64,000 nt of DNA, from sequence record SRR31156797_1568; one strand, 5' to 3'. The notes under the pieces are model-generated. The model worked only from the letters and a program-made list of their open reading frames with translations. It did not search any database and was not told where the DNA came from. The position numbers and the translations under genes were made by a program. Shown here piece by piece: positions 2,273 through 53,331 of this stretch; positions within the stretch are counted from its first letter, which is position 1; every line of letters starts with the position of its first letter.

Positions 2273-4153
2273 GTGATTATGGCTAGAAATGAGTTTTCTA
2301 AAAAGAAATTTAGCATCGCTACTTTGCTGGTAGCAGTTCTTGTTCTCTTCTCGATCATAGGGACATTCACAATGATCTTTTTGTCGAGGAGCTACTCGGA
2401 GTCTGCACTTCATTCGTTGGCAAACGATATAATTAAGAGAACTGTTTACGACTCAACTGAACATGTTAGCACAATTATCAAACCAGCAGTGAGTGCAGTC
2501 GGTGTTCTTGAATCTCAAATCCCAGAAGCAGCCGCTATCATCAATGATAAAAAGAAAAATGATTCTATTGTTCACTCTATGATCAAAACTCTTCAGGATC
2601 AGAAGGGTGTCTATACTATATATTATGCCAATGAGCTTGGTGAGTTTTTCCTCGTTGGTAAAAGGCAGAGGTTCGAAGACGATAAAAAAGTCTACTATTT
2701 TCATAAAAGAATTACTGTTCGAGATGGCGTGAGGCGAGTGACTGAAACATGGTATGACGACTTCGGAGAGCTGGATACAGTCGTTTTAGGGAACGATATA
2801 TATAATCCGAAAGTGAGACCTTGGTATAATAAAGCTAAAGTTAGCGGAACTAAAATATGGACAGATCCTTACATCTTTTTTATTACGAAACTTCCAGGCA
2901 TAACCTATGCAAAACCTATTTACTATAATGGAGTTTTCTCCGGAGTGGTAGCCTCAGACCTTGAGATTAATACTATTTCAAAGTTTATGATGGACAGTGT
3001 TTTTACTAAGAATACAAGTATCTTCGCAGTCGATAACAGCAACCATGTGATAGCTCACTCTAATTTTATAAATAGATATGCAGACAAGTTAGTCTTAAAA
3101 GATAAGATTCCGGATATCTCCAGCTTCGAAGACGGAGTGATGAAAGAGATGGTCTGGCGTTATATCCCCGATGTTGAGTCAGTTGTTACCGACTTAAAGG
3201 TAGATCGTAATCGCTATAAGAGCATGATAATACCTATTAATGTGTATGGTTTAAACCTTAAATTAGGTATGTACACGCCGGCAAATGACTATCTTCAGCC
3301 TCTGAATGAGAGATATAGGGCATTATTCATTTTGGCAGTTATTCTTTTGATGATTGTCGTTATTGTAAGCAGATACATCTCTCGTCAGCTAGCAAAGCCG
3401 TTTAAGGAACTTAGCGAAGCGACTGAGCGGGCTAAGGATCTTGATTTTGATAAGCAGATAAATATTCATACCGGCTTTAAGGAAGTCTCACTTACACAGA
3501 ATAATTTTAACGAAATGCTTGAGTCACTTAAGAATTATCAGTCGGCTAACGAACTCCTTTCAGAGACACTTCATAATGCTCATATAGACACACTATACAG
3601 GCTTGCGATGGCTGCGGAGCATAAAGACCAATACACCTATGATCACCTCAAAAGAGTTAGTGATATCTCGGTACATATTGCTGATGTGCTTGGTATGTCT
3701 AATCGTGACATGGAGCTTATAAGGCACGCCAGCGCTATGCACGATGTGGGCAAGCTTGGCATACCGGATAACATACTTATGAAGCCGGGGAAGCTTACTG
3801 TGGACGAGTTTGATGTTATCAAGACGCATTCTCTTCTGGGGAGCAAAATCCTTGAAAACCCTAGCTCGGAAGAGATGCACGCTTCTCAGGTTATCGCACT
3901 TTCCCATCATGAAAAGTGGGACGGCAGCGGTTATCCGCAAAAGCTATCCTGCGAAGATATCCCTCTTAACGGGCGGATTGTAGCACTCGCAGATGTGACA
4001 GATGCTCTGCTTTCCAAGAGACCTTATAAGGAACCTTTCACATTTGATCACACCATGGAAATTATAGAATTTGAGCGTGGTAAACACTTCGACCCAGAGC
4101 TTGTTGACCTTGTTTTAGAGAATAAAAAAACAATTCATAAGCTTGTTATTTAA
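2273..4153 (+). CDS. Cache/HAMP sensor HD-GYP c-di-GMP phosphodiesterase
   Basis: Two TM segments, YNPKVRPWY Cache motif, HAMP, HDVGK and HHEKWDGSGYP. Start may be ATG 2279. Confidence 0.9.
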   Translation: MIMARNEFSKKKFSIATLLVAVLVLFSIIGTFTMIFLSRSYSESALHSLANDIIKRTVYDSTEHVSTIIKPAVSAVGVLESQIPEAAAIINDKKKNDSIVHSMIKTLQDQKGVYTIYYANELGEFFLVGKRQRFEDDKKVYYFHKRITVRDGVRRVTETWYDDFGELDTVVLGNDIYNPKVRPWYNKAKVSGTKIWTDPYIFFITKLPGITYAKPIYYNGVFSGVVASDLEINTISKFMMDSVFTKNTSIFAVDNSNHVIAHSNFINRYADKLVLKDKIPDISSFEDGVMKEMVWRYIPDVESVVTDLKVDRNRYKSMIIPINVYGLNLKLGMYTPANDYLQPLNERYRALFILAVILLMIVVIVSRYISRQLAKPFKELSEATERAKDLDFDKQINIHTGFKEVSLTQNNFNEMLESLKNYQSANELLSETLHNAHIDTLYRLAMAAEHKDQYTYDHLKRVSDISVHIADVLGMSNRDMELIRHASAMHDVGKLGIPDNILMKPGKLTVDEFDVIKTHSLLGSKILENPSSEEMHASQVIALSHHEKWDGSGYPQKLSCEDIPLNGRIVALADVTDALLSKRPYKEPFTFDHTMEIIEFERGKHFDPELVDLVLENKKTIHKLVI

Positions 4154-21133: not shown

Positions 21134-21207
21134 CGCCCCCGGCATGACTTGAACATGCGACCTCTGGATTAGGAATCCATCGCTCTATCCACCTGAGCTA
21201 CGGGGGC
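21134..21207 (-). tRNA. tRNA-Arg(CCT)
   Basis: Minus strand GCCCCCGTAGCTCAG...TGGA-TT-CCT-AA-TCCA...GTTCAAGTC...GGGGGC-G. Confidence 0.93.
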
Positions 21208-25545: not shown

Positions 25546-26244
25546 ATGAAAGCTGGCGTAGTTGTTTTTCCCGGATCAAACTGTGACCACGACTGCTATC
25601 ACGTGCTTAAGCATGTGCTTGGCGTAGAAACAGTTTTCTTATGGCATAAAGATACAGACCTTCAAGGTGTTGATCTTGTGGTATTTCCCGGAGGCTTTTC
25701 ATATGGAGACTATCTCCGCTGTGGTGCGATAGCTAAATTCTCTCCAATTGTTAGCGAAGTTGTTAATTTCGCAAATAACGGCGGTAAAGTTCTCGGCATC
25801 TGTAACGGGTTTCAGGTTCTCACAGAGACAGGGCTCCTTCCTGGTGCTCTTATGAGAAACCGTGATCTTAAATTCATCTGTAAATATACAAACCTCAGAG
25901 TTGATAATTCAGATACACCATTCAGCAGAATGTACGCTGCCGGAGAGGTTATAAACGTCCCTGTCGCTCATATGGACGGTAACTACTTCATCGATCCTGA
26001 TGGACTTCAGAAACTTGAAGAGAATAACCAGATAGTTTTCCGTTACTGTGATAACAACGGCGAATGTAACGAAGAGACAAACATAAACGGCTCACTGAAT
26101 AATATTGCAGGTATCGTTAACGAGGCTGGAAATGTCCTCGGGATGATGCCGCACCCTGAGCGTTGTGCTGAGGGCGTTATGGAGACTAGAGACGGATATT
26201 TCCTTTTCGAGTCGATAATCAAAGCTATTGGAGGTGCCGCATGA
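25546..26244 (+). CDS. purQ: FGAM synthase glutaminase subunit
   Basis: [32 protein letters not shown]. Confidence 0.97.
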
Positions 26245-28469
26245 GCGTATACGATAAGTTCGGCTATCCAGAGGTAACCTTCCCGATAGCGAAAGAGATG
26301 GGACTCTCAGAGGCTGAGTTCGAAGATGTGCAGAGACTCATCGGCAGAATGCCTAACTACATCGAGCTTGGTATCATCTCATCCATGTATTCTGAGCACT
26401 GCTCATATAAATCAAGCCGTGTTCACCTCGCTAAATTCCCTACTGAGGCTCCTTGGGTTGTTCAGGGACCTGGTGAGAATGCCGGCGTTATCTCCGTTGA
26501 CGACGAAGGAACTTGCGTCTGCTTTAAAGTTGAGTCGCACAACCACCCGTCATTCATCGAACCTTTTCAGGGGGCGGCGACAGGCGTGGGCGGTATCCTG
26601 AGAGACGTTTTCACCATGGGTGCAAGACCTGTTGCGGCGATGAATTCACTCAGATTTGGTAAATTAGATAATCCGAAAAACAGATATATATTCGAAGGTG
26701 TAGTTGAAGGTATCTCCCACTATGGTAACTGCTTCGGCGTACCTACAATTGGTGGCGAGGTTTACTACAACTCATGCTACGACGGCAACCCGCTGGTTAA
26801 CGCATTTGCACTCGGCGTTGTGAAGAAGGACAAAATCTTCCTCGCAAAGGCTGAAGGTAAGGGCAACCCTGTGATCTATGTCGGTGCTAAAACCGGACGT
26901 GATGGTATCCACGGTGCTACTATGGCATCTGCTGAGTTCGATGAGAATAGCGAAGCGAAACGCCCTAACGTTCAGATAGGTGATCCGTTCAAAGAGAAAC
27001 TTCTCCTTGAGGCTTGCTTAGAGCTTATGAAGACTGACTACATCGTCGGTATTCAGGATATGGGTGCGGCTGGTCTTACGTCTTCATCATTTGAGATGGC
27101 TTCCAAGTCAGGCTCAGGTGTGAGGCTCGACCTCGACAATGTACCTGTTCGTGAAAATAGTATGACACCTTACGAAATCATGCTTTCCGAGTCGCAGGAG
27201 CGTATGCTCATGGTGGCGAAGAAGGGCTATGAGGACAAGGTTAAAGAGATATTTGAGAAGTGGGATCTTGACGCTTCTGTTATCGGTGAGGTTACTGATG
27301 ACGGATACGTTAGACTCACATGGGAAGGCGAGGAAGTAGCGGCACTTGAGGCGGCTCCACTCGCTGATGAAGCTCCTAAGTATGAGCGTCCATATTCCAG
27401 ACCTGAATCTCAGGATGCGCTTCAGAAGCCTGTAGAGGTTGATGAGCCGAGGGATATGCAGGAAATTCTTGAGAGACTTCTAAGTAACCCTACTATCGCA
27501 TCAAAGCGCTGGGTTTACGAGCAGTACGACCATATGGTTCGTGTCGGTACTGTACAGCTTCCGGGTAGTGACGCATCTCTCATCAGAATAAACGAATCTG
27601 ATACCGGCGTTGCCATGTCTGCTGACTGTAACAGCAGATACTGCTACCTTAACCCTTTTGAGGGTGGTAAGGCGGCTATCGCTGAGTCAGCCAGAAACGT
27701 TGCTGTTTCCGGTGCTAGACCACGTGCTTTTACTAACTGTCTTAACTTCGGTAACCCTGAGAAAGAGGGCATCATGTGGCAGTTCGCTACAGCACTTGAG
27801 GGTATCTGTGAGGCGGCTAAAGCGCTTGAGACACCTGTTGTCAGTGGTAATGTATCGCTTTATAACGAGACAGAAGGGACACCTATCCACCCGACACCGA
27901 CAATCGTCATGGTGGGTGTGATAGATGACGTTAATAAAAGAATCGGCTCTTACCTTAAAGATGTCGGAAGCCAGCTATACCTCCTCGGCGAGAACGACGG
28001 ACACATTGGCGGTTCTGAATATCTTGCATATATTCATGGTAAAGAGCTTGGTGATGCTCCGGCGGTTGATCTCGACCGTGAGAAAGCTATTATCGATTTC
28101 ATGTGTGAGGCGGCTGACGAAAAGCTGATCAGCTCTGCTCATGACGTTTCCGACGGCGGACTCGCTGTGGCGATAGCTGAGATGACTTTTAACGGAAATC
28201 TAGGTGTTGATGTAAATCTTCAGGACGATATCAGAGCTGATAAGCTCCTCTTTGGTGAAAACCACGGAAGAGTTGTCCTTGAGGTCTCAAACGTTAATGC
28301 TGCAAATGTAGAAAAACTAGCCAACCAGAAAGGGCTTCCTATCACACGCATAGGTCGCACTACTAGTGAAAGTATTGATATATCAGCAGGTAAGAGAAAA
28401 CTCATTAACATGCCTGTGAAAGATGCACGCTCCATTTGGAGTGACAGCATCGGGGAAATAATGAAATGA
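26241..28469 (+). CDS. purL: FGAM synthase subunit PurL
   Basis: [31 protein letters not shown]. Confidence 0.97.
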
Positions 28470-29830
28470 TGGATAAATTCCATGAAGAGTGTGGCGTAGC
28501 AGGAGTTTACGCTAACGATGACGCAGCGAACCTTGTTTACCTCTCTCTCTATGCTCTCCAGCACAGAGGTCAGGAGGGTGCGGGTATCTCTGTGAGTGAC
28601 AGAAGTGAAATATTAACTGAGAAAGGTATGGGGCTTGTCGCTGATATCTTTACACCTGAAAAACTTGAAAAACTTTCGGGTGATATAGCTATCGGACATA
28701 ACAGATACTCCACCACCGGTGTTTCTCAGCTTCAGAATACTCAGCCGATCACAGCGACTATCAACGCCGGTCAGATATCTCTGGCGCATAACGGTAACAT
28801 TGTGAACGCTGACGATATAAAGCAGGAACTAGTCAGGAAAGGGGCGATCTTCGGCTCCAGCTCTGATTCAGAAGTTGTTGTGCACCTTATCGCAAAAAGT
28901 GAAAAAGACGGTCTTATGGACTCTATCGCCCACGCTCTAACACAGCTTAAGGGTGCTTTTTCTCTGCTTGTAATGACAAATGATAAACTTATTGGTGTGC
29001 GTGACCCTATGGGGATGCGCCCGCTTGTACTTGGTAAGCTTAAGAATGGATATATCCTCGTTTCTGAGAGCTGTGCTCTTGACCTTATCGAGGCGACAAT
29101 GGTTCGTGAGATTGAGCCGGGTGAAATGGTCATCATCGATGATAACGGTATAAAATCGATCTTTCCTTTTGAGAAAACTAAGCCTAGATCTTGTGTTTTT
29201 GAACACATATATTTTGCAAGACCAGATTCTTACATCTTTGGCAACTCTGTTTATAACGTGCGTAAGCGGATGGGATATAAGCTTGCTGAAGAGGACGATG
29301 TTGAGGCTGATGTGGTTATCCCTGTTCCTGATTCCGGCGTGGTTGCTACCCTCGGTTATGCTGAGGCGAGCGGTATTCCATTCCAGATGGGGCTGATGAG
29401 AAACCACTATGTCGGAAGGACATTTATAGAGCCTAGCCAGTCTATCAGACACTTCGGGGTTAAGATCAAGCTTAATGCTGTTCGTGACGTGATAGAGGGC
29501 AAAAAGGTTGTTGTTGTTGACGATTCTATCGTTAGGGGAACAACAAGCCGTAAGATAGTTAAGATGCTTCGTGAAGCTGGGGCGAAAGAGGTGCACATGC
29601 GCATAAGCAGCCCTCCTACAGCGTTCCCATGTTTTTACGGAATTGATACACCAACAAGGAAAGAACTGATCGCCTCCACACATACAGTGGAAGAGATTCA
29701 GAAGTATATAACAGCAGATAGCTTAAACTATCTGAGCATTGATGGGCTGATGGATTGTGTCGGCAGTACTGATTACTGTCACGCCTGTTTTGACGGCGAC
29801 TATCCAACTATGCACCACAATGGTGACTAG
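28466..29830 (+). CDS. purF: Amidophosphoribosyltransferase
   Basis: [28 protein letters not shown], Fe-S cysteines (CHAC). Confidence 0.97.
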
Positions 29831-29839
29831 GAGTTATTG

Positions 29840-30202
29840 ATGAGTGATGTGATTGTTGTCAGGATGTTCGGTAGCAGCATGGAGTTTGTTTCAGGCTGAA
29901 GCCCTTCTTATTTCCCTTCAGGTTGTGGGGTAAAAGATGATCCTTACGAAGAAATCTCTTACAAAACCGATGCCATTCTCAGCGCTGAGTATGGTAAGGA
30001 CAGTGTGGATTTCAAATATATCGATGTGTCTTCTCCGGAGATACTTGAGTATATCAATGATGTTACCAATATTGTTGAAGGCAGGCTGCCGTTTCCGTAT
30101 ATATCGCTTAATGACAAGCCTTTATGCTGGGGGCTTATGGAACCTGCTGAGATAACTGAAAAGATCAAAGAGAAACTTGAGGGTAGGTCTGAGGCGTCAT
30201 AA
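29840..30202 (+). CDS. Putative selenoprotein, thioredoxin-like fold (YuzD/DUF1462-like), 120 aa, in-frame TGA at 29897-29899
   Basis: RBS AGGAG 6 nt before ATG; frame open to TAA 30202 except one TGA; SECIS-like hairpin at 29906-29937; PFPYISLNDK cis-Pro-like loop. Confidence 0.75.
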
Positions 30203-33445: not shown

Positions 33446-33549
33446 GACCCGACAGGGTGACTCCGGCACACAAATAATCCTACTACCGTTGCTTCCTTCC
33501 GGACCTGGCGGGGTTCGCGGGATATCCGTTGCAGAGGCCCCATCGGGCC
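33446..33549 (-). ncRNA. ffs: Small bacterial SRP RNA (4.5S)
   Basis: Minus strand CCAGGTCCGGAAGGAAGCAACGG domain IV inside a long hairpin with paired ends. Confidence 0.95.
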
Positions 33550-33582
33550 ATTCTTAAAAGTTTTTGTCAAAACAACAAAAAG

Positions 33583-33671
33583 CGGAGAAGGAGGGATTCG
33601 AACCCTCGGTACGCGTAAACGTACACACACTTTCCAGGCGTGCTCCTTAAACCTGACTCGGACACCTCTCC
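33583..33671 (-). tRNA. tRNA-Ser(GGA)
   Basis: GGAGAGG...CACGC-CT-GGA-AA-GTGTG, long variable arm, GGTTCGAATCC. Confidence 0.95.
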
Positions 33672-39363: not shown

Positions 39364-40689
39364 TTATATGTCGTACTTTTCAAGTCTGTAAAGGAAGACG
39401 TGTCTCGGCATACAGAGGTATTTCGCCGCACGGCTTTTGTTCCCTTCGAATTTCGCCAATGTCTTTTTTATTATGGTTTTTTCAAGCTCTTCTATGTTTA
39501 GCTCATCATCCGGCAGATTCATATCTAGGCAGGAAACCATATCACTGCACATCTCAGCAGGGAGGAGCGAAATGTCTATCTCGCCTTTCCCTTTAAGGAT
39601 ACAAAGTCTGTAGACGGTATTTTCAAGCTCACGGATATTACCCGTCCAGTTGTGGTTAATCAGCTTTTGAAGTGCTTCCTCAGAGAAGGTTACTTTAGCT
39701 CCGTACTTAGCAGAGAACAGCTCTATCAGGTCTTTTATATCTTCACGCCTTTGAGCGAGAGACGGCACTTCCACAGGGAAAACGTTTAGCCTGTAGTATA
39801 GATCCTCACGGAAATCGCCAGCTTCTGTCATGCTTTTCAGATTACGGTTTGTGGCGGCTACTACCCGCACATCAACCTTAGCCGGAATAGCTGAGCCTAC
39901 AGGCTGTATCTCTGATTCCTGCAAAAACCTGAGCAGCTTAACCTGTATCGAAAGGGGAAGCTCACCGATCTCGTCAAGGAATAGTGTGCCCCCTTCCGCT
40001 TCGAGTATTTTCCCTTTATAGTCTTTATCAGCAGAAGTGAATGAGCCTTTCTTGTGCCCGAATAGCTCACTTTCGAATAGATTTTCAGGTATTGCAGCAC
40101 AGTTTATAGTTATAAATGGTTTCTCAGCCCTATTGCTATTGCTATGAATATATTTAGCTATCAGCTCTTTACCTGTTCCACTCTCGCCTAGGATAAGCAC
40201 AGGAGCATCTGTAGGTGATACCGTATCAGCAAGCTTCAGCATAGAGGTGAAGGCCTCACTGCTCCCAACAAGGTTAGGTGTAATAGAGGATTTTAAATAC
40301 TGCTTCATACGGCTGTTTTCCCTACGCATCATACTTATCTCAATAGCTTTCTGAACGGAATTCAACAGCTCTTCATTTTCGAACGGTTTTGTGAGATAGT
40401 CGTATGCGCCTCTTCGTATAGCTGCAACAGCGTCAGGGATATTTCCGTGTGCGGTGATAATTATCACAGGCATATCAGGGTAGAGCTTTGAGACGGTTTC
40501 AAAAACTTCGTTTCCGTCCATTCCCGGCATGCGTATATCTGTTATGAGTACATCATATCTCTTTTCGGATAGAAATTTCAGCCCTTCGAAACCGTTAGGT
40601 GCATGATCATTTTCGATATTTTCTGATGACAGAAACATACCCACCAGAGTTGCTAGTGAGGCATTGTCCTCAATTAAAAGTACGCTCAT
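39364..40689 (-). CDS. Sigma54-dependent response regulator (NtrC family)
   Basis: Receiver domain, GESGTGKE, ESELFGH, GSFTSA (GAFTGA variant), FLDEIGE, FREDLYYRL, Fis-type HTH. Confidence 0.93.
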   Translation of the reverse strand: MSVLLIEDNASLATLVGMFLSSENIENDHAPNGFEGLKFLSEKRYDVLITDIRMPGMDGNEVFETVSKLYPDMPVIIITAHGNIPDAVAAIRRGAYDYLTKPFENEELLNSVQKAIEISMMRRENSRMKQYLKSSITPNLVGSSEAFTSMLKLADTVSPTDAPVLILGESGTGKELIAKYIHSNSNRAEKPFITINCAAIPENLFESELFGHKKGSFTSADKDYKGKILEAEGGTLFLDEIGELPLSIQVKLLRFLQESEIQPVGSAIPAKVDVRVVAATNRNLKSMTEAGDFREDLYYRLNVFPVEVPSLAQRREDIKDLIELFSAKYGAKVTFSEEALQKLINHNWTGNIRELENTVYRLCILKGKGEIDISLLPAEMCSDMVSCLDMNLPDDELNIEELEKTIIKKTLAKFEGNKSRAAKYLCMPRHVFLYRLEKYDI

Positions 40690-41774
40690 TCATTCCCCCT
40701 GCTGATAACCATGCTGAATGTACAGCCGGTATGGTTGTTTCTGACTGTTAGGTTTCCGCCGTGCTGTCTGGCGATCTTCGATGCGAGTGGAAGACCAAGC
40801 CCTGTTCCATCTTTGTTAGTGGTGAAAAACGGATCGAATATCTTGTCGATAATCTCTTCCTCTATGCCGTGACCGTTATCGGTTATACTTAATATAATGT
40901 TAGAGTCTGAAACATCTACTGAGAGCTTTAACTCAGCATTGTCTATCTCTTTTGCAGCTTCTAGCCCGTTAATGATTATATTGAGGATAGCCTGTTTGAG
41001 AGAATTTTTGTCACCGGATATAAGCACGCCTTCTGATGCAGAAGTGTCATAGATGATTTTCACCCTGTGCTTCCTTGAGGCTAGGTTGATAAGCTCTTTC
41101 AGCTCTGATATGAATAGTGACAGTTCGAACTGGGATTTTTCGTCTGAGCCGAAGCGTGAGTATTGGAGGAAGTTAGTTATAAACTCATTAAGGTTATTGA
41201 TCTCTGTGCTGAGGATATCCATCACCTGATCATTCCCTTTTCCCGACCGGATGAGTGATATGCCTGATTTGATAGCGGCGAGTGGATTGCGTATCTCGTG
41301 TGCTATCCCCGCCGATAGCTGACCTATCTCTTTCAGCCTGTTGTCGTGGGCAACTTTTCTTTCAAGCTCAATCATCTCCCTTGAGACCTGCTCAACTTTT
41401 CTCTTTTCGCGTCTGAGCCTGTCGCTCAGTGCGCCAGCGAGTATGCCGACAGCGTAAACCATCGATACCTCAACGAGTGAAGGCATGATGTAATGAGGAA
41501 AATCCAGATTTATTATGTGTATGTAAGCGGATGGGCTGTATATAACAGTTAGGATTATCGAAAGTATCAGCCCGCCCCATATGCCGTATCTGTAGGCAGT
41601 GTAAATAACTATTATATAAAAAGCATAATAGTGAGAGATATGTACAACAGTGTGATGCCTAGGCACACCGTAGTGGAAATAAGTGACAATGAGGGTTGAT
41701 ATAACTATAACTGATATACTGAAAGTGTGATTTTTCAGGTCATATAGCCCCTTGATGTTCATTTTCTTGACCAC
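40686..41774 (-). CDS. Membrane sensor histidine kinase with His-rich TM region
   Basis: AHEIRNPL, DNGHG, GTGLGL; HYGVPRHH..VHISHYY. Confidence 0.9.
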   Translation of the reverse strand: MVKKMNIKGLYDLKNHTFSISVIVISTLIVTYFHYGVPRHHTVVHISHYYAFYIIVIYTAYRYGIWGGLILSIILTVIYSPSAYIHIINLDFPHYIMPSLVEVSMVYAVGILAGALSDRLRREKRKVEQVSREMIELERKVAHDNRLKEIGQLSAGIAHEIRNPLAAIKSGISLIRSGKGNDQVMDILSTEINNLNEFITNFLQYSRFGSDEKSQFELSLFISELKELINLASRKHRVKIIYDTSASEGVLISGDKNSLKQAILNIIINGLEAAKEIDNAELKLSVDVSDSNIILSITDNGHGIEEEIIDKIFDPFFTTNKDGTGLGLPLASKIARQHGGNLTVRNNHTGCTFSMVISRGNE

Positions 41775-53245: not shown

Positions 53246-53331
53246 GCCGAGGTGGTGGAACTGGTAGACACGCAGGACTAAGGATCCTGTGCGAGTCAAA
53301 TCGCGTGAGAGTTCAAGTCTCTCTCTCGGCA
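53246..53331 (+). tRNA. tRNA-Leu with anticodon AAG
   Basis: GCCGAGG acceptor; CAGGA-CT-AAG-GA-TCCTG anticodon arm; long variable arm; GTTCAAGTC; discriminator A. Confidence 0.92.

Follow-up and report, generated by a model that had tools for sequence, protein, structure and literature searches.

Thioredoxin-fold enzymes carry a CxxC motif between strand β1 and helix α1, and YuzD carries a CxxC in its N-terminal part. To our knowledge no function has been established for the DUF1462/YuzD family, which is represented by the crystal structure 1xg8 (Staphylococcus aureus SA0798), and the label "disulfide oxidoreductase YuzD" is taken from source annotation. Selenocysteine (Sec, U) occurs on the same fold, as thioredoxin-fold selenoproteins of the UxxC, CxxU and UxxS types have been catalogued (PMC13188914, Table 1), and, in the part of that inventory available to us, Cys-containing orthologues exist for almost every selenoprotein. 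The same part gives rules for bacterial Sec insertion sequence (bSECIS) elements, namely a loop of 3-9 nucleotides (nt) with a G in its first two positions, an upper stem of 4-16 base pairs (bp), 16-37 nt from the UGA to the loop and an energy <= -7.5 kcal/mol, with the loop consensus N1-G-[G/U]-N-N2 in which N1 pairs with N2 (PMC13188914). Here we describe a gene that lies directly downstream of purF in a 64,000-nt window of sequence record SRR31156797_1568, the window being the whole stretch of DNA analysed, to which all coordinates refer. As judged by sequence comparison, 29840-30202 is very probably a selenoprotein gene in which an in-frame TGA is decoded as Sec.

The frame opens with an ATG at 29840, 9 nt past the TAG stop of purF (29828-29830), and its translation reads MSDVIVVRMFGSSMEFVSG-U-SPSYFPSGCGVKDD...RSEAS*, with the TGA at 29897-29899 as the sole interruption; the residues around Sec20 are MFGSSMEFVSG-U-SPSYFPSGCGVK. 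A standard open reading frame (ORF) list gives merely a 65-amino-acid (aa) frame that begins at a GTG (30005-30202). An earlier interpretation of the letters of this DNA, which we call the sequence-only reading, had pointed to the ATG and its AGGAG 9 nt after the purF stop, to the single TGA in frame and to an ORF list that displays the last 65 aa alone, and all of these are present in the sequence. The hidden selenoprotein that it proposed is now supported by TGA in every orthologue examined, a conserved N-terminus, a hairpin in the SECIS position and Sec machinery in five of five relatives.

We compared the locus with ten genome loci from the Deferribacterales (Denitrovibrio, Seleniivibrio, Deferribacter, Calditerrivibrio and others) and three metagenome loci. 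In all ten genome loci the aligned codon is TGA, and the frame continues upstream beyond it to an ATG 18-19 codons 5' of the TGA, with a purine-rich stretch before the ATG (the start of L004 was taken as the ATG at 3001); TGA also occupies the aligned codon in the three metagenome loci. A census of 68 genomes of the phylum Deferribacterota located the gene in 27, and each of the 28 strong matches (E <= 5.9e-42) contains exactly one TGA. The 27 distinct versions of the 84 nt around the site all have TGA, as do L017, which is homopolymer-expanded, and L042, which has the motif variant G-U-GPSFSPAGCG, and neither TGT, TGC nor TGG stands at the site in any of this DNA. The conserved motif of the family is FG[ST]S..F.SG-U-[SANG]PS.F..GCG, and U20 and C29 are invariant in the 11 aligned proteins, which upholds the U-x8-C spacing read earlier from the window sequence.

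The coding constraint on this frame was quantified over 12 sequences as the ratio of non-synonymous to synonymous change (pN/pS). The 12 codons that precede the TGA have a value of 0.19, the 16 that follow it 0.23 and the rest of the gene 0.33; the two shifted frames give values of 1.5-3.9. Thus, a single frame is under purifying selection across the TGA, which speaks against a stop or a pseudogene and also against a downstream protein with a start of its own. The N-terminal part, whose lack of conservation the sequence-only reading had named as contrary evidence, is kept as protein over the 19 codons before the TGA. The codon also terminates 9 of the 33 open frames of at least 250 codons in the window, and TGA is therefore not reassigned in the window genome; two orthologues themselves end in TGA.

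Two side observations concern these sequences. In one genome (G033) the gene is found twice, on separate contigs (L026 on C7 and L023 on C16), and the L023 copy follows a purF; the double copy may reflect strain heterogeneity of a metagenome-assembled genome. On the metagenome contigs L016 and L017, extra C, G and A bases in homopolymers shift or lengthen the frame, which looks like sequencing error, and the database protein P0002 resembles them.

The RNA that follows the UGA can fold into a SECIS-like hairpin. With the U of UGA numbered as position 1, the upper stem is formed by positions 18-23/29-34 (29914-29919 with 29925-29930). A24-G25-G26-U27-U28 (29920-29924) make up the loop, and in the lower stem UCUU pairs with AAGA (29906-29909 with 29934-29937). 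Folded from just past the UGA, this hairpin is the minimum-energy structure of the window sequence (-7.5 kcal/mol, with one U.U mismatch), and its stems and GG-bearing loop are as the sequence-only reading had drawn them. Set beside the bSECIS rules in the available part of PMC13188914, the A-G-G-U-U loop, the spacing of 20 nt and the energy, which in the window is at the limit, all fall within what is allowed. In our own rough implementation of the published rules, a single 1x1 mismatch has to be allowed for the window candidate to pass, and 15 of the 27 orthologues pass strictly (25 of 27 with one mismatch allowed). A scan of the window with Rfam at gathering thresholds gave nothing at the hairpin and returned the small signal recognition particle (SRP) RNA and tRNAs alone.

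Across the orthologues the same hairpin recurs. It is the minimum-energy structure in 24 of the 27 distinct sequences, its energy ranges from -7.5 to -18.5 kcal/mol over all 27, and its loop is AGGUU in 23, AGGCU in three and GGGCU in one. Compensatory changes are found at two of the six upper-stem pairs. Pair 18-34 is C-G in 16 sequences, U-A in 8 and U-G in 3, with L042 adding a G-U, and pair 22-30 is G-C in 8, A-U in 6, G-U in 1 and unpaired in 12. The first base of codon 27 and the third base of the Cys29 codon covary: of the 9 sequences with Ala (GCA) at codon 27, 8 have UGC for Cys29, and all 6 with Thr (ACA) there have UGU. The covariation score of 11 sequences was reached by none of 500 shuffles, a control that overstates significance given the relatedness of the sequences, and controls in slid positions scored clearly worse; lower-stem pairing was left out of this analysis owing to register shifts between the sequences. 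Covariation lends the hairpin modest support, as the sequences have shared ancestry and the region codes for a conserved peptide as well.

An internal control for the marking of Sec codons in this lineage is its selD, which in related genomes is itself a selenoprotein gene (context KAAG-U-AAK). Past its in-frame TGA comes a short stem, rich in G+C, whose GGN loop lies 21-23 nt from the UGA, as read in four genes (L011, L012, L014 and L015; L013 gave no frame of more than 300 residues). The two elements differ in position, as the GGU of the candidate loop is at 25-27 and the selD stem begins 4 nt closer to the UGA, and SelD is unrelated to the candidate as a protein and in function. The family also has a divergent paralogue, a second copy in genome G031, in which codon 20 is again TGA, within EECTSG-U-MPLPVAPVGG. 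Its residues and bases after the UGA differ from those of the main family, and a GUG loop on a 7-bp stem (positions 18-24/28-34) occupies the place of the family hairpin. In the database this copy is represented by P0025, a 74-aa call that is truncated and bears the label Limisalsivibrio acetivorans. The paralogue does not adjoin purF, and its neighbours, RmuC, a methyltransferase, a cytochrome b5/DUF2231 protein and a MoCF domain protein, give no functional lead.

The machinery for Sec decoding is present in all five related genomes searched, each of which has selA (E <= 1e-132), a tRNA-Sec (62-69 bits), a SelB winged-helix domain and selD with an in-frame TGA; the 64-kb window itself contains no Sec gene or tRNA-Sec. 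Among the 68 genomes of the phylum, 29 have selA. The gene and selA occur together in 27 genomes (in G021 with a weak selA match, E 1.9e-4), selA occurs without the gene in two (G023 and G068), the gene never occurs without selA and 39 genomes have neither. Because the genomes are phylogenetically dependent and some are incomplete, this co-occurrence is to be taken as a pattern and not as a statistic. The gene is missing from all 39 selA-negative genomes, and no Cys version is found in its place. The family, seen so far in selenium-using Deferribacterota only, thus offers with its all-or-nothing co-occurrence with selA in one phylum a clean case of gene retention tied to the Sec trait.

In protein databases the family appears almost entirely in truncated form. 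A search of 5.8 billion protein clusters returned 14 relatives, 13 of which are gene calls of 68-86 aa that start past the TGA, at differing residues, while in the fourteenth, P0002, the upstream part is translated in a different frame; one orthologue is the RefSeq entry "hypothetical protein Dacet_1984" (76 aa). When 1.84 billion representatives were searched exhaustively with HMMER, six proteins were found, among them four N-truncated calls (P0016, P0018, P0019 and P0021) and one full-length relative, P0017, of 125 aa and 44% identity. The sixth, P0020 (4617 aa), matches query residues 61-95 in 13 separate stretches (E 6e-12) and may be a repeat protein built of a similar segment. The public protein records of the family that we encountered are thus all wrong, and the N-terminal truncation (13 of 14) makes the presumed catalytic part invisible in databases.

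An AlphaFold2 model based on the 11-sequence alignment has the order β-α-β-α-β-β-α, with a mean predicted local distance difference test (pLDDT) score of 70.5 and a predicted template modelling score (pTM) of 0.61. Strand β1 comprises residues 5-11 and is followed by a long loop (residues 15-32) and then by α1, β2, α2, β3, β4 and α3. The predicted structure is thus of the thioredoxin type and places Sec in the segment that follows β1, in agreement with the fold proposed in the sequence-only reading. The DUF1462 structure 1xg8 is the top match in Foldseek (E 6e-4, template modelling score (TM) 0.57/0.62) and in VIA-align (Z 10.6, root mean square deviation (rmsd) of 3.9 over 102 of 108 residues); thioredoxins come next in VIA-align, with Z 8.2-9.7. 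DUF1462 is also the sole Pfam match of the window protein (18.9 bits, E 0.002, residues 44-109), below the 25-bit gathering cut-off. All 11 family members match DUF1462 at E <= 0.1, the best at 1.3e-5, and the family profile aligns residues 37-113 to residues 29-108 of 1xg8 (E 0.0046). Among NCBIfam release 20.0 families none matched at E <= 1 when C was put for U, and there was no Pfam match to PF00085, PF00462 or PF13192 at E <= 1.

The score below the cut-off and the unaligned N-terminal Sec loop make the protein a distant relative of DUF1462 and not a member by the Pfam test. Of the YuzD/DUF1462-like protein suggested earlier, the structural match and a weak family score therefore stand, and the kinship is distant only. 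The two share a similar size and order of secondary structure elements. They differ in the N-terminal 36-43 residues, comprising β1 and the Sec loop, which do not align and are ~8-18 residues longer here, and in the Sec at position 20 with its U-x8-C spacing. For DUF1462/YuzD, the family points to the segment of the fold that is likely reactive. With Sec-containing thioredoxins and glutaredoxins the protein has in common the thioredoxin fold, the location of Sec after β1, a bSECIS-type hairpin inside the coding region and a presumed dependence on selA/selB/selC/selD, and its local U-x-x-S resembles the UxxS motif of several predicted families (PMC13188914, Table 1). In contrast to thioredoxin and glutaredoxin proper, with which it shares only the fold, its nearest Cys is 9 residues away and not 3.

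Several observations weigh against decoding of the TGA as Sec or against the function that we derive from it. In the window alone the hairpin is within chance, and the case for it rests on the cross-genome comparison. The 71 nt from 29890 to 29960 are no stabler than shuffles (z +1.09) and have a different minimum-energy structure, and 213-258 of the 2776 TGA triplets of the window (8-9%) pass the rough bSECIS rules. Beyond the 12 of 27 sequences in which pair 22-30 is open, L002 breaks two further pairs, and conservation of the hairpin nucleotides may be owed in part to the conserved peptide PSYFPxGCG. For the window's own genome the Sec machinery is presumed from relatives, which reach 87% identity in PurF. 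In the paralogue Cys29 is missing and C-x3-U is found instead, with a Cys four residues before Sec. The Sec loop (15-32) is modelled at pLDDT <50, and closeness of Sec20 and Cys29 is not fixed by the model. No Cys orthologue was found in the 5.8 billion clusters (14 matches), the 1.84 billion representatives (six) or the 68 genomes, and the usual test by Cys/Sec pairs is therefore unavailable; the sequence-only reading had expected homologues with either Cys or TGA, of which TGA was found throughout and Cys never. Finally, P0017 reads TSG-W-SPSYFPTGC, with W at the Sec site. Trp at this site, which that reading had named as evidence against Sec, is thus written in this one protein, and the DNA examined always has TGA.

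P0017 comes from one 1127-nt contig, has no cluster mates and carries a precomputed PF07315 label. Its only other W falls where the relatives have their stop codon, and it is without the conserved W97. This pattern may be what is expected of a gene call made with translation table 4 from two TGA codons. No informative match was obtained when P0017 was compared with solved structures.

Taking both sides together, we consider it highly likely that the gene encodes a Sec-decoded thioredoxin-fold protein that acts as a selenol/thiol oxidoreductase and is co-transcribed with purL-purF. In the mechanism that we infer, for Sec insertion, redox chemistry and client alike, the gene, co-transcribed with purL-purF, would yield a 120-residue selenoprotein, with SelB and tRNA-Sec decoding the UGA at codon 20 under the direction of the hairpin, which would begin ~7 nt past the UGA and present its GGU loop 21-24 nt downstream of it. 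Sec20 and Cys29 would lie in an extended, flexible loop between β1 and α1. The Sec20 selenolate, as the nucleophile, would attack a disulfide or an oxidised sulfur of the substrate, Cys29 would resolve the intermediate to give a Sec20-Cys29 selenenylsulfide, and a cellular reductant would then reduce the selenenylsulfide. By analogy, a selenol/thiol oxidoreductase cycling through this Sec20-Cys29 selenenylsulfide is the most likely activity.

The position of the gene bears on its possible client. All 13 related loci have purF immediately upstream of the gene, and purL is upstream of purF in the ten genome loci as far as the flanks reach (tblastn, 57-84% identity). The C-terminal CxxC tail of PurF is, we assume from Bacillus-type PurF, an iron-sulfur (Fe-S) ligand motif. 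On synteny, together with the short gap of 9 nt to the purF stop and the ribosome-binding site that overlaps it, a client in PurF or the purine pathway is the leading guess, albeit a tentative one. The more specific proposal, that a Sec-only family (no Cys among ~15 billion predicted proteins), discarded and not turned into a Cys form where the Sec machinery is missing, with an atypically long U-x-x-S...C active-site loop (U-x8-C) on a DUF1462 scaffold is a dedicated redox partner of PurF, is unlikely; if true, it would be the first direct link of selenium to de novo purine synthesis. Against a role at PurF, purF is followed by unrelated genes in all five Sec-negative relatives examined, with no thioredoxin-like substitute: judged by eye from the translations, secreted or membrane proteins follow in two, and the others have a formyltransferase-like frame, a convergent LysE-like frame and an antitoxin-like frame. 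Moreover, the three PurF tails from Sec-negative genomes (L045, L046 and L048) keep the CxxC. Since purF occurs without this gene in the Sec-negative relatives, PurF is not generally in need of it, and the service to PurF suggested in the sequence-only reading stays conjectural, with the synteny of 13 of 13 loci speaking for it and the five relatives managing without the gene. The fixed place after purF nevertheless yields a testable hypothesis, a selenium-dependent step near purine synthesis in the anaerobic Deferribacterota.

The main functional rival is a metal- or metalloid-binding role, in which the Sec-decoded protein is a metal, metalloid or selenium carrier and Sec20 and Cys29 bind a ligand in the manner of ArsD, an Fe-S cluster or selenium. 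The genera named for the relatives are metal- and metalloid-respiring ones. ArsD shares a thioredoxin-like fold and has its functional cysteines in a flexible N-terminal segment; its structures 3kgk and 3mwh are in the top ten Foldseek matches, at ranks 4 and 8 (E 0.013-0.018, 10-11% identity), and Sec and Cys are predicted to lie in a long low-confidence loop and not in a CxxC helix cap. In the part of PMC13188914 available to us, moreover, metals take part in ~70% of the ligand interactions predicted for selenoprotein families. However, the structural match is weak, with thioredoxins equalling or outscoring ArsD, and there is no sequence similarity to ArsD, DUF1462 being the only family matched in Pfam. 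The genomic setting is a purine operon, and in none of the 13 loci does the gene adjoin an ars gene or one for metal transport or selenium metabolism. We therefore regard a carrier as distinctly unlikely compared with the oxidoreductase.

It is very improbable that the UGA is read through without the Sec system, by near-cognate Trp or Cys insertion or by local recoding, to place an ordinary residue at position 20. P0017, as written with W at that position, would fit such read-through, but its pattern, on a single short contig, fits a table-4 call, as we infer. The distribution of the gene, in 27 of 29 selA-positive and none of 39 selA-negative genomes, also speaks against it, as do the SECIS-type hairpin that is in place even in the sequence-divergent paralogue and the use of TGA as the terminator of long frames in the window. 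That the TGA is a true stop, leaving a decayed gene or a 19-codon leader followed by a separately initiated C-terminal protein, is hardly credible: the public gene calls agree with it in starting past the TGA, but the called starts vary by genome (V31, M43, M46, L46 and others), so that there is no conserved internal start, codons 21-36, which lie 5' of the called starts, and the 12 codons before the TGA have the low pN/pS given above, strand β1 belongs to the predicted sheet, and a pseudogene would not retain an identical stop, with no other lesion, in 27 genomes.

The gene very probably represents a new selenoprotein family on a thioredoxin-type scaffold with ordinary bacterial decoding. Its unusual traits are the lack of any Cys form among the sequences found, the long distance between Sec and Cys and the constant location within a purine operon. 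Neither a PF07315 entry nor one with this motif is in the 2026 table, which covers 119 prokaryotic selenoprotein families and subfamilies (PMC13188914), and the text of that paper nowhere mentions DUF1462, YuzD, Deferribacter or Denitrovibrio. The same four names are absent from the main text of the BSepDB paper, where the gene may sit under another name; Denitrovibrio genomes are among those analysed for BSepDB, according to the portion of its supplement available to us. Our literature search found no report of this family, which would extend the 2026 inventory by one. Discovery methods based on Cys/Sec pairs would miss it, as no Cys homologue was found.

Table 1. Features of the purL-purF-selenoprotein locus and of the paralogue; window coordinates unless a locus is named.
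Feature	Coordinates	Strand	Remarks
purL (742 aa)	26241..28469	+	ORF; heads the conserved purL-purF-selenoprotein order
purF (454 aa), glutamine amidophosphoribosyltransferase	28466..29830	+	ORF; Pfam GATase_6/7 and Pribosyltran; C-terminal CxxC tail
Ribosome-binding site AGGAG	29829-29833	+	Overlaps the purF stop; 6 nt 5' of the ATG
Probable selenoprotein gene, 120 codons and TAA (30200-30202)	29840..30202	+	Predicted thioredoxin fold; distant DUF1462/YuzD relative
In-frame TGA, codon 20, probably read as Sec	29897..29899	+	TGA conserved in orthologues
SECIS-like hairpin	29904..29939	+	Minimum-energy structure of the 45 nt after the UGA
Cys29 codon TGT	29924..29926	+	Putative partner of Sec20 (U-x8-C); within the 3' arm of the hairpin
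Histidine-kinase-like gene (HATPase_c), 371 aa	30281-31396	+	Cys-rich N-terminal part; downstream of the selenoprotein gene
Divergent paralogue, 117 aa (P0024)	L019:368-718, genome G031	-	Second copy

The histidine-kinase-like gene is in the same position in 7 of the 13 related loci (L001-L005, L016 and L017), within the available flanks. Elsewhere in the window, six other read-through frames were checked, and no Pfam domain spans a TGA in any of them. The frame at 39367-40815 on the minus strand was rejected as a selenoprotein gene, being that of a sigma-54-dependent response regulator (Response_reg, Sigma54_activat and HTH_8) with the TGA upstream of its start. The small SRP RNA is at 33447-33545 (-), and the tRNA genes are tRNA-Arg(CCT) at 21134-21207 (-), tRNA-Ser(GGA) at 33582-33671 (-) and tRNA-Leu(AAG) at 53246-53331 (+); a partial tRNA (1-67) opens the window.

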